The translations under genes and the position numbers were made by a program. Below are positions 16,021 through 18,928 of a stretch of 64,000 nucleotides of DNA, piece by piece (position 1 is the stretch's first letter; every line of letters starts with the position of its first letter). The notes under the pieces were generated by a model. It was not told the DNA's origin. It ran no database searches and was given only the letters and a program-made list of their open reading frames with translations. Source of the DNA: an uncultured Chloroflexia bacterium (GTDB lineage Bacteria; Chloroflexota; Limnocylindria; Limnocylindrales; CSP1-4); assembly GCA_963757055.1 (NCBI GenBank), contig CAVWPX010000007.1:5618-69617 (forward strand), read 5' to 3'.

Positions 16021-16095
16021 CGCGGGCCGGATGCTAGCACCGGGTTCGCACGCTGCCGCCCGTACGGAGGTCCCGGTACCGCCACTCGGCGGCGA

Positions 16096-17017
16096 TCAGC
16101 CGCGATCGAGCTCCGTCAGGGCCTTCGCGACCGCCTGGATCGAGGGCACGGTGATCGGGTCGAGGACCAGCTGGACCGTGCCGATCCCTTCGCGGGCGTA
16201 CGCGCGGAGCGCATCGGCCATGGCGGCCGGGATCGCCGGTCAGCGGCGGGATCGCGGCCTGGGTGGCGTCGCCCGACAGCCGTCCCGTGCCGCCGGGCAG
16301 CCCGACGAGCACGGCGACGGTCCGCTCGATCGCCGCCGGATCGCGTCCGACGTCGCGGCACGCCTCGTCCACGACGTCCCGCAGCGGGGCGATGCCCGCC
16401 GGCGTGTTGCCGATGTCCGCGTACCACGTGTTCCAGGCGTCGGCGTAGGGCAGCGCGATCCGCAGCATCCGCGGCCCGTTGGAGCCGATGAGCAGCGGCG
16501 GGCCGCCGGGACGGGCGCTGCGCGGCAGGAGCTCGCAGTCGCGCGCCTGGTAGTAGCGCCCGTCGAAATCGATGGCGCCCTCGCCAAGGAGCGTGCGGAT
16601 GATCGTGAACGCCTCCTCGAAGCGGTCCACGCGGTGGTCGTACGGGAAGCCGAAGGCCTTGAACTCGGTCTCGTTCCAGCCGGCGCCGAGGCCGAGGATG
16701 AACCGGCCGCCGCTGATCTCGTCGATCGTCGCGGCCTGCTTCGCGAGCAGGGCGGGGTTGTGGAAGCTCGTGCACGCGACGAACGGGCCGAACTCGACCC
16801 GCGACGTGGTCGCGGCGATGGCCGCCATCAGCGTCCAGGCCTCCCACGGTCCGCGGGCGGGCCGGCCCTCCCAGCGGTAGAGCAGGTGCTCGCCGAGCCA
16901 GATGGAGTCGAACCCGAGGTCCTCGATCGCCCGGATCATGTCGAGCAGCTCCGGCCAGCGGACCTCGCGCTCGACCTCGGGGAGCTGGACGCCGACCTTG
17001 AGCGGCCGTCCCGCCAT
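16096..17017 (-). CDS. LLM-class flavin/F420-dependent oxidoreductase (frameshift near 16235)
   Basis: KVGVQLPE, EDLGFDSIWLGEH, HNPALLAKQAATIDEISGGRFILGLGAGW, PLLIGSNGPRM. Confidence 0.9.
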
Positions 17018-18088
17018 CAGCCGCCGGCCGTCGACGGCCGCGGCGATCGCCCGGAGGTGGTCGGGCGTGCTCCCGCAGCAGCCGCCGACGATGGTCGCCC
17101 CGGCCTCGCGCATCTCGAGCACCTGGCCCGCCATGGTGTCGGGGTCCGCGCGGTAGACGGCGCGCATGTCGACCAGCTCGGGCATCCCGGCATTCGACTT
17201 GGCGACCAGCACGACATCGGGTCGCGCGGCATGCATCTTCGCGATGACCGGGATCAGCTCGTCCGGGCCGTTCCCGCAGTTGCCGCCCACCGCGTCCGCG
17301 CCCCACGCGTCGAGCGCGGCGACGGCCTGCTCCGGCGAGACGCCCATCATCGTGTGCCCGCGCGTGTCGAACGTCATCGTGGCGATGAGCGCGATGCTCG
17401 GCGACGCGCGCCGGACGCCCTCGATCGCCGCCTTGATCTCGTTCAGGTCGGACATCGTCTCGATCCAGATGAGGTCCACGCCCCCGGCGATCAGCGACGC
17501 GGCCTGCTCGTGGAAGATGTCGACCGCCTCCGCGTACGGCAGCGTCCCGAGCGGCTCGACGATCTCGCCGGACGGGCCGATGTCGCCGGCGACCAGCGCG
17601 TGCCCGCCCGCGGCATCGACCTCGGCACGGAGCAGGATCGCCGCGGTCCGGTTCAGCTCGTCGACCGAGTCGGCGTGGCCGCTGAGCTTCAACCGCGCCC
17701 GGTTCCCGCCGAAGGTGTTGGTGAGCAGGATCTGCGAGCCCGCGTCGATGTAGGCGCGCTGGATCCGGCGGATGACGTCCGGGTGGGCGAGGTTCCAGAC
17801 CTCGGGCGGGTCGCCGAACTGCAGGCCGTTCGCGAAGAGCATCGTGCCCATCGCGCCGTCGGCGCAGACCGGGCCACCGGCGTCGAGGAGCGCGCGGAAC
17901 TTCGCGCTCGCGGCGCCGCCGTCGATCGAGCGGCGGGTCGCGACGTCCGGGAAGGCCGCGCGGTCGACGTCCTCGGGCGGAGCGGCCGGCCCGTCATCGT
18001 GGCTCGCGCCGTTCGTGGCGCGCGCGGCGGCCTCGTCGAGCCGCCGGTTCCTGGTGCCGCGTCGAACGCTGTCCATGCCCGGCATCAT
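17017..18088 (-). CDS. Homocysteine S-methyltransferase family protein (stand-alone MetH N-terminal-type domain)
   Basis: DGAMGTML, YIDAGSQILLTNTFG, AGDIGP, ETMSD, GGNCGNGP and GGCCGSTP zinc-binding Cys motifs. Confidence 0.9.
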
Positions 18089-18103
18089 CCCACGCTCGGC
18101 GGG

Positions 18104-18133
18104 TTGACAGCGACATCCCGCGTCCCGCACCCT
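18104..18133 (+). promoter_or_regulatory. Putative sigma70 promoter of leader-peptide/LysE transcript
   Basis: Perfect TTGACA at 18104-18109; weak -10 CACCCT at 18128-18133 (18-nt spacer). Confidence 0.45.
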
Positions 18134-18142
18134 GCGCCCGAC

Positions 18143-18214
18143 ATGCATCACGCCATCGCGCCGACCCTCGCGACCACGTCGCAGCAGCAGCCCTGGAGGG
18201 CCTGCTCGACCTGA
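18143..18214 (+). CDS. Putative 23-aa attenuator leader peptide MHHAIAPTLATTSQQQPWRACST
   Basis: Short ORF between the promoter-like element and a terminator hairpin, upstream of the LysE gene. Confidence 0.45.
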   Translation: MHHAIAPTLATTSQQQPWRACST

Positions 18215-18256
18215 TGCGCCGCGCCCGGAACGGGCGCCACGACACGGTGAGACGAC

Positions 18257-18291
18257 CGCCCTCAGCTCGGATGCTGAGGGCGTTTCCTTTT
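18257..18291 (+). terminator. Intrinsic terminator in the 5' leader of the LysE gene
   Basis: Perfect 10-bp stem CGCCCTCAGC/GCTGAGGGCG, 6-nt loop, then TTTCCTTTT, immediately before GGAGG and ATG 18305. Confidence 0.8.
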
Positions 18292-18304
18292 GATGGAGGC
18301 AACG

Positions 18305-18928
18305 ATGGATCCCGCGCTCCTCGCCAGGGGCTTCATCCTCGGGTTCACGATCGCGGCGGCGGTCGGGCCGATCTCGGTGCTCGTCATCCGCCGGACGCTC
18401 GCCGAGGGCCGCACGGTCGGGCTGGCGTCCGGGCTGGGCGTCGCCACGGCGGACGCGATCTATGGCGGCATCGCCGCGTTCGGCCTGTCGGCGATCACGG
18501 ACGTGCTCGTGGGCGGCGGCCGCTGGCTCGGCCTGATCGGCGGGATCTTCCTGCTGTTCCTCGCCTGGAGGACGGCGCGGTCGGAGCCCGGTCCCGCGGC
18601 GACCGTCACGGAGCGACGCGGCGGCCTGGCCGGCGCCTACCTCTCGATCCTGGGCCTCACGATGACGAACCCGATGACGATCATCTCGTTCGGCGCGCTC
18701 TTCGCCGGGCTGGGCGTGACCGGCGAGAACGCGGTCGAGTCCACGCTGATCACGCTCGGCGTCTTCCTGGGCTCGGGCAGCTGGTGGGTGATCCTGACCT
18801 TCGTCGTCGGCCGGCTGCGCACGCGCGTGACGCCCCGCGCGCTCCGGATCGTCAACGTCGTCTCCGGCGTCGTGATCGGGGCGTTCGCGATCTCGTCGAT
18901 CGTGCTGGCGCTGCGCGGACCGGCCTAG
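18305..18928 (+). CDS. LysE/RhtB family amino-acid exporter
   Basis: GFTIAAAVGPISVLVIRRTL.EG...GLGVATAD.IYG, LTMTNPMTI; GGAGG RBS at 18295-18299. Confidence 0.92.
   Translation: MDPALLARGFILGFTIAAAVGPISVLVIRRTLAEGRTVGLASGLGVATADAIYGGIAAFGLSAITDVLVGGGRWLGLIGGIFLLFLAWRTARSEPGPAATVTERRGGLAGAYLSILGLTMTNPMTIISFGALFAGLGVTGENAVESTLITLGVFLGSGSWWVILTFVVGRLRTRVTPRALRIVNVVSGVVIGAFAISSIVLALRGPA

Follow-up and report, generated by a model that had tools for sequence, protein, structure and literature searches.

In the classical transcription attenuators trpL, hisL, pheL, leuL, thrL and ilvL, a short open reading frame (ORF) holds regulatory codons within or next to region 1 of a leader RNA that can form mutually exclusive 1:2, 2:3 and 3:4 hairpins, an intrinsic terminator precedes the structural gene, and read-through occurs when the cognate charged tRNA is scarce. 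To our knowledge, leader-peptide attenuation is known almost only for biosynthetic operons and for few amino acids, in Proteobacteria, Firmicutes and Actinobacteria, and almost no gene regulation has been characterized in the Chloroflexota. Here, a leader with these same structural features is described from an uncultured soil Chloroflexia bacterium of the order Limnocylindrales, where it precedes a gene for a LysE-family exporter in a 64,000-nucleotide stretch of contig CAVWPX010000007.1 (assembly GCA_963757055.1, positions 5,618 to 69,617, forward strand; hereafter, the window). An earlier note, made from the letters of the window, had proposed a leader-peptide attenuator before this gene and had suggested a comparison of the upstream regions of LysE orthologs. 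That comparison found both conservation of the upstream ORF (uORF) and covariation of the stems, and homologous leaders back the proposal through a maintained reading frame, insertions and deletions of whole codons, exchange of one stop codon for another, and hairpin covariation. The locus is best read as a 1:2/2:3/3:4 ribosome-mediated transcription attenuator with a leaderless uORF and Gln/Asn control codons that governs a LysE-family exporter, a reading to which a probability of about 0.72 is assigned.

As in the classical systems, read-through upon scarcity of the cognate charged tRNA is proposed for the LysE leader. It is unlike them in its Gln/Asn control codons, its apparently leaderless uORF and its Chloroflexota host, and also in two points of layout: the stop codon lies after region 2 instead of between regions 1 and 2, and a fourth, covarying hairpin stands between regions 2 and 3. 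In addition, the product of a classically attenuated gene makes or charges the amino acid that is sensed, whereas the gene behind the LysE leader encodes an exporter in 64 of 64 cases. Full-text literature searches found no attenuator with Gln codons and none for a LysE gene, in agreement with the earlier note, whose author knew of none of this form for LysE genes. The locus would extend leader-peptide attenuation in four ways: in the amino acids read (Gln/Asn), the function controlled (an exporter), the form of the uORF (leaderless) and the phylum (Chloroflexota).

A second point of comparison is provided by the leaderless poly-cysteine short ORFs of mycobacteria, on which the ribosome pauses when the amino acid is limiting, so that mRNA structure alters downstream expression; specifically, stalling opens up a structure in which the ribosome-binding site (RBS) of the next gene is buried, and the targets are genes of cysteine metabolism (Canestrari et al., bioRxiv 10.1101/834739). 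A leaderless, sensory short ORF with a codon tract is common to both systems, whereas the LysE leader has a terminator switch, an RBS outside the stem, Gln/Asn codons and an exporter as its target. LysE-family exporters elsewhere are under a different form of control, in which the LysR-type regulators LysG and ArgP induce LysE/ArgO exporters upon substrate excess (Corynebacterium glutamicum, E. coli). The regulated gene family is the same in these systems and at the present locus, where there is no linked regulator gene and the sensing is proposed to be done by the ribosome.

The source genome (G000; 2.8 Mb, 10 contigs, ~75% complete) has a G+C content of 72%, and the 23-codon leader frame is the tail of a 961-codon spurious ORF. 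An open frame of this length is therefore no evidence in itself, and the evidential weight comes from comparison with relatives. Among LysE orthologs of the same genus, the leader was present at 22 of 30 loci. A covariance model built from these 22 leaders was searched in 401 genomes of the order, and inspection of the hits left genuine leaders in six genera of one family (g1, g7, g9, g24, g29 and g37), one copy per genome. Altogether, 64 distinct leaders were aligned to the model and about 16 more were inspected, with a LysE homolog downstream of every one of the 64. Hits below ~32 bits in other genera or phyla proved on inspection to be gene-end terminators, except for L092 and L093, which are genuine, and 400 further Chloroflexota genomes yielded only three weak hits, all of them ordinary gene-end terminators. 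A pattern scan of the source genome for units of a leaderless short ORF and a terminator found only the LysE leader.

Several relatives carry reduced versions of the locus. In L115 (150-400), the promoter is fused to a remnant of the 3' arm of the terminator; in L003 and L028, only the terminator remains; and in L014, L016, L017 and L024, all of genus g1, no leader precedes the orthologous LysE gene. Such leader-loss variants could serve as natural constitutive or uninducible controls.

The front end of the leader is recurrent in its spacing. TTGACA, or a variant with one mismatch, stands 16-19 nt (consensus 17 or 18) before a -10-like hexamer in 61 of the 64 leaders, the hexamer reading CACCCT, CACAGT, CACGAT, TATGAT or TAGTCT, and an ATG, GTG or TTG in frame with the conserved stop follows 5-10 nt (mostly 7) after the hexamer, again in 61 of 64. 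Two exceptions, L074 and L080, possess a good -10 (TATGAT and TATCCT, respectively) without a -35 box, and the third, L025, comes from a genome whose own LysE gene is frameshifted. Because the start codon lies so close after the -10 and no Shine-Dalgarno sequence intervenes, the uORF mRNA is predicted to be leaderless or near-leaderless. The coding signature of the predicted uORF is found in 61 of the 64 leaders. The peptides are 18-24 residues long and variable in their N-terminal half, where length differences always amount to whole codons, and the stop codon, which is TGA or, in three lineages, TAG, sits at a fixed point past hairpin 1 and ahead of the middle hairpin, with the frame preserved. 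L074 reads the GAGGG motif in another frame and its ORF is still open, which argues that each of the two, RNA element and ORF, is conserved in its own right.

Two further observations concern these frames. Most peptides of g1 and many of g9 begin with Met-His-His or Met-His-Arg (window 18146-18151 and homologs), which may reflect a preference in leaderless initiation or in the initially transcribed region. Single-base frame shifts also occur in uORFs or LysE genes of related metagenome-assembled genomes (MAGs), namely L025 and L145 and the LysE genes of L049, L053, L054 and L027; long-read indel errors are a more probable cause than pseudogene formation, and calls of gene presence in such assemblies are limited accordingly.

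Three helices follow one another in the leader, and each is supported by covariation. Over the 64 leaders, pairing holds in 95.3% of the alignment cells of hairpin 1, the middle hairpin and the terminator, with double-sided changes in 14 of the 22 base pairs; none of 500 shuffles reached these values, and partners slid by 1-3 columns pair in 36-51% of cells. Helix 1 is paired in 90.9% of cells and exchanges G-C for U-A in other genera, where GGCCC/GGGCC is replaced by GTCCC/GGGAC, CCCTC/GAGGG or CCCGC/GCGGG. In the middle hairpin, all six of six pairs show double-sided changes (96.6% of cells paired), and this element might act as a pause site or close the 2:3 loop. The terminator helix, kept in all 64 leaders, has double-sided changes in 6 of 11 pairs and is paired in 96.7% of cells. 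In the window, hairpin 1 consists of a core (GCCC 18190-93 with GGGC 18198-201) that extends over 18178-18210, and its calculated free energy is -20.3 kcal/mol, next to -13.9 for the middle hairpin and -22.2 for the terminator. The leader as a whole folds more stably than its own shuffles (z = -2.67), and the terminator is the sole site found by a terminator scan in 3 kb, where 0.4 would be expected from shuffles. The upstream gene is divergent, so the terminator does not belong to it. The predicted switchable element is the terminator, whose stem does not include the GGAGG of the LysE gene; RBS sequestration is thus not indicated.

The complementarity on which a switch would depend is likewise present. 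Region 2 (CGAGGG in most leaders, GAGGGC in the window) is complementary to region 3 (CCCTCG and GCCCTC, respectively), with 85% of cells paired as compared with 37-58% when the partners are slid. With region 1 masked and region 4 absent, 6-11 such pairs appear in the minimum-energy fold of 63 of the 64 leaders, and in the window ViennaRNA returns, under the same two constraints, exactly the antiterminator between GAGGGC and GCCCTC that had been put forward before. The other elements listed in the earlier note (TTGACA, the 23-codon ORF, a 7-bp hairpin, a terminator stem of 10 bp, the RBS and the ATG of the LysE gene) are all found where it had placed them; it did not contain the -10-like box, the hairpin within the uORF that is the source of region 1, or the abutment of the Gln codons on region 1. 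The 7-bp hairpin at 18221-18237 was considered as the 1:2 hairpin and rejected, being the separate middle hairpin. Its 3' arm was also considered as the antiterminator; it can pair with region 3 in the window (GGGCG/CGCCC), and cannot do so in relatives whose arm reads CACCC.

Three minor results bear on the same segment. In one subclade of g1, region 2 has become CCGGG and region 3 has lost a T (GCCC-CGGC), so that a 2:3 duplex of 5 bp is preserved while the terminator acquires a bulged A; this co-change is suggestive, though it is a single event. RNAalifold, applied to a MAFFT alignment of the region 2-3 segment, gave nothing useful and missed even the middle hairpin, owing to misalignment. 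Finally, the terminators of g24 (L070, L071, L072 and L074) have long stems, GGGAACGCCCTCAGC...GCTGGGGGCGTTCCC, without a clear U-run, and termination in this genus may lie outside the canonical intrinsic rule.

The codons next to region 1 are the most constant part of the peptide. When the peptides of 63 leaders are aligned on the codon that holds the first base of region 1, codon -2 is Gln in 56 and Asn in 7, and thus one or the other in 63 of 63, and the position after it is Gln in 51. Of the 315 residues in a five-codon control interval, 146 are Gln or Asn, as against 11 of 1006 elsewhere, a roughly 40-fold enrichment, and the control codons vary synonymously (CAG/CAA, AAC/AAT). In the window, the Gln codons directly abut the core of region 1. 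When codon -2 occupies the A site, the distance from the first P-site base to the start of region 1 is 9-11 nt, and region 2 starts at about +18 or beyond. The downstream stretch covered or unwound by a ribosome measures roughly 12-15 nt. Region 1 is therefore within reach of such a ribosome and region 2 beyond it, so that a stalled ribosome would mask region 1 only. Four kinds of signal had been considered possible in the earlier note, and the Gln-Gln-Gln run has stood up as the conserved one. The others have not: peptides often begin with MHH, more than 35 nt away from region 1, and His-His, Thr, Trp and the AGG Arg codon are either unconserved between genera or coincide with paired RNA arms, the AGG being there because GAGGG is a pairing strand.

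The identity of the control codon is associated with how the cell charges its tRNAs. In the indirect pathway, transamidation by GatCAB makes both Gln-tRNA(Gln) and Asn-tRNA(Asn). AsnRS (TIGR00457, asnS) scored above its cut-off in none of 33 relatives; GatB was matched in 13 of 14 genomes, including the source genome, and above cut-off in 12; and GlnRS (TIGR00440, glnS; hits of more than 700 bits) was present in 10 of 66 leader-bearing genomes and not found in the source genome. With no AsnRS and mostly no GlnRS, both of these aminoacyl-tRNAs would come from GatCAB in most relatives. In a first set of genomes, Asn occurred in the control interval of 8 of 9 with GlnRS and of 1 of 55 without it, and leaders averaged 0.8 Gln codons in the former state versus 2.3 in the latter. 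Genus g24 displays the same division on a small scale, its three genomes with GlnRS having Asn and its single genome without it having Gln-Gln. As a check, 14 further genomes were drawn, and they agreed with the prediction: two with an intact glnS have Gln-Asn-Gln, eleven without glnS have no Asn, and the remaining one combines a disrupted glnS with a Gln-Gln leader. Pooled, Asn codons are found in 10 of 11 GlnRS-positive and 1 of 66 GlnRS-negative genomes (Fisher 1e-10, kinship ignored), and on the LysE tree the combined GlnRS/Asn state needs at least four independent changes. Gln codons would serve equally well in the presence of GlnRS if free glutamine were sensed; the switch to Asn hence points to GatCAB-made aminoacyl-tRNAs as the signal. 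A sensor codon that tracks the route of tRNA charging is an unusually sharp comparative argument for what a ribosome senses.

A side observation on glnS comes from genus g9, in which the gene of one genome (G074:C2:440-2000) is split into two frames and contains a TGA, beside a leader with Gln-Gln and no Asn. This may be either a decaying gene or an assembly error.

The following sequence of events is proposed for the window. Transcription would start a few bases before the ATG at 18143, and the first ribosome would read the uORF. If the ribosome moved unhindered to the stop codon (18212-18214), or if the uORF went untranslated, region 2 would be covered or paired with region 1 and, being unavailable, would let the terminator (18257-18291) form and end transcription before the LysE gene. 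A ribosome at the stop would already have crossed both arms, and after its release the 1:2 hairpin would re-form and 3:4 would terminate. A ribosome waiting at the Gln codons (18182-18190) for Gln-tRNA(Gln) would cover region 1 only, leaving GAGGGC (18196-18201) free to pair with GCCCTC (18258-18263) before the 3' arm of the terminator is made, with read-through into the LysE gene as the outcome. In relatives with GlnRS, the codon at which the ribosome waits would be Asn.

As to the signal, the quantity most likely sensed would be the supply of amide aminoacyl-tRNAs made by GatCAB, a supply governed by GatCAB capacity and by glutamine, the amide donor. It is a more tentative suggestion, and one that we would not favor over its negation, that the attenuator senses GatCAB output instead of an amino acid pool, that Gln gave way to Asn at least four times in lineages acquiring GlnRS, and that the exporter removes whatever starves the pathway. 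Speculatively, glutamine synthesis or GatCAB could be blocked by an amino acid or by a natural antimetabolite of glutamine, and this would be the compound exported. Precedents of a kind are known: canavanine leaves the cell through ArgO, and homoserine is an inhibitor of the glutamate dehydrogenase of E. coli. If the suggestion is true, indirect tRNA aminoacylation would here have its first cis-regulatory sensor. The leader also offers a direct handle on how GatCAB-reliant bacteria monitor that pathway and a testable lead to the substrate of an uncharacterized LysE subfamily.

A number of points weigh against the attenuator as read here. The -10 of the window, CACCCT, is a poor match to TATAAT and was not called by a promoter scan, and transcription start, termination and uORF translation are all predictions from sequence. 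No column-wise covariation was seen in the 2:3 pairing, both of whose strands are invariant; a shuffled C-rich region 3 also often pairs with the G-rich region 2, and the real one has an advantage of only 3.4 kcal/mol. In the window, the terminator is thermodynamically favored once region 4 is present, and the switch would consequently have to be kinetic, as in the classical attenuators. The GlnRS association lacks a correction for kinship, its GlnRS calls come from MAGs that are 59-95% complete, and it has two misfits, one genome with GlnRS, one Gln codon and no Asn (G016) and one with Asn codons in which no GlnRS was found (G315). Finally, the induction of an exporter upon starvation is counter-intuitive.

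The presence of an exporter downstream invites comparison with sensors of general translation stress or antibiotics, in which drug-arrested ribosomes on the uORF would relieve termination, as in the ermC, vmlR, bmrCD and whiB7-uORF types, and the LysE protein would serve in efflux or resistance. The antibiotic attenuators (ermC-like, vmlR, bmrCD, mef/msrD and the whiB7 uORF) also place a uORF and a premature terminator before a transporter or resistance gene, and such control of transporters by ribosome-targeting drugs is well documented for BmrCD, mef/mel and whiB7. Many versions of the leader even have Arg-x-Arg after the Gln codons, similar to the '+x+' arrest motif of macrolides; the window peptide (WRAC) and several genera lack it, however, and the sole invariant codon is Gln/Asn. 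Arrest by antibiotics needs the drug together with peptide motifs, whereas the codon type of the LysE leader tracks the tRNA-charging pathway, and a drug sensor gives no reason for the codon to follow the presence of GlnRS. LysE-family (PF01810) proteins are not known as drug pumps, and a sensor of this sort appears unlikely. The more intuitive logic for an exporter, induction by an excess of its own substrate, would be supplied by a metabolite-sensing arrest peptide of the TnaC/SpeFL type, in which the nascent peptide and a free amino acid jointly stall the ribosome, and some Pro/Arg conservation after the Gln codons does exist within g1. TnaC and SpeFL are defined by a peptide conserved across taxa, whereas the peptide here differs between genera (QQRPARARSS, QQQSRTRDGSA, NPNPSTRDCSD, NRSNRNPQPRGASS), and its conserved residues other than Gln/Asn coincide with RNA stems, the Pro, Arg and Ala codons falling on the paired arms of hairpin 1. 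The GAGGG of L074 is read in another frame, stalling near the stop would place the ribosome over region 2 and so favor termination instead of read-through, and the GlnRS association would go unexplained. An arrest peptide is thus somewhat less probable again than a drug sensor.

Three covarying hairpins with an intrinsic terminator as expression platform would also suit a leader RNA that binds a ligand or a protein, that is, a novel riboswitch or a site for an attenuator protein, with the open frame arising by coincidence, all the more since chance open frames are to be expected at 72% G+C. A scan against Rfam 15 gave no match below E = 1 in 17950-18450, which bears out the previous statement that the leader has no known riboswitch signature, and Rfam found no riboswitch upstream of LysE orthologs from other phyla. 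The 5' half has no conserved sequence or structure, yet the frame, the promoter-spaced start and the fixed stop are kept, and the invariant feature is a type of codon with synonymous variation; we regard a binding RNA as very improbable. Of the explanations considered, the least probable is that the terminated transcript of ~150 nt acts primarily in trans as a small RNA, its place before the LysE gene being secondary. Attenuator-derived small RNAs of this kind do exist, rnTrpL being one, and the leader has its own putative promoter and terminator. Against this stand the exclusive linkage to LysE (64 of 64, one copy per genome) and the clean loss of the leader in some relatives that keep the LysE gene. 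A small-RNA role is in any event compatible with function as an attenuator, which is the reading preferred here.

The features of the locus are collected in Table 1.

Table 1. Features of the LysE leader and its gene in the window.
Feature	Position	Strand	Basis or remark
Putative -35 box, TTGACA	18104..18109	+	Read directly; promoter role predicted from sequence
-10-like hexamer, CACCCT (xAxxxT)	18128..18133	+	18 nt after the -35 box, 9 nt before the ATG
Predicted leader uORF, MHHAIAPTLATTSQQQPWRACST, 23 codons plus TGA (stop 18212-18214)	18143..18214	+	ATG at 18143
Control codons CAG CAG CAG (Gln14-16)	18182..18190	+	Codon conservation among relatives
Region 1, 5' arm of hairpin 1, core GCCC 18190-18193	18178..18193	+	Fold and covariation
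Region 2, 3' arm of hairpin 1; GAGGGC 18196-18201 doubles as antiterminator strand	18196..18210	+	
Middle hairpin, GCGCCCG-GAA-CGGGCGC	18221..18237	+	6 nt past the uORF stop
Region 3, 5' arm of terminator, CGCCCTCAGC	18257..18266	+	
Region 4, 3' arm of terminator, GCTGAGGGCG, closing a perfect, G+C-rich 10-bp stem (18257-18282), plus T-run TTTCCTTTT	18273..18291	+	
Shine-Dalgarno sequence of the LysE gene, GGAGG	18295..18299	+	Read directly
LysE-family exporter gene, 207 aa, monocistronic in the window	18305..18928	+	PF01810

The exporter belongs to the LysE family by its match to PF01810 (E 6.4e-22, residues 15-197). Its best NCBIfam match is TIGR00949, for homoserine/threonine efflux, at 58 bits and far below the cut-off; its scores against the RhtB/RhtC and LysE subfamily models likewise fall short of the cut-offs, and a PDB sequence search with the protein found no relative. 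The next gene downstream is convergent and of the glyoxalase/VOC type, and synteny among relatives gave no clear clue to the exporter's substrate. In genus g9 (L130 2854-4907, L131 2786-4935), the LysE gene is followed on the same strand, at distances of at most 27 nt, by cofC (PF01983) and cofE (F420-0:gamma-glutamyl ligase, PF01996), and the attenuator may there control a LysE-cofC-cofE operon.

The gene upstream of the leader is divergent, resembles homocysteine S-methyltransferase and starts with an ATG at 18076 (minus strand). A hexamer of -10 type, GATGAT, stands 7 nt before this ATG (window 18076-18100, minus strand) and gives the gene a leaderless look, and in relatives TATCAT stands 6-8 nt before the ATG, read on the plus strand as CATGATAG in L004, L009, L015, L021, L023 and L028. 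Leaderless mRNAs may accordingly be common in the lineage. The frame itself (16034-18088, minus strand) comprises 684 codons, with a homocysteine S-methyltransferase domain at residues 76-352 and an F420-type luciferase-like oxidoreductase domain at 373-594. It is of low complexity after about residue 600, and a 41-codon ORF in another frame (16096-16221) resembles the true C-terminus; the gene may be that of a fusion protein, interrupted near 16220-16300 by a frameshift that could be an indel of the assembly.

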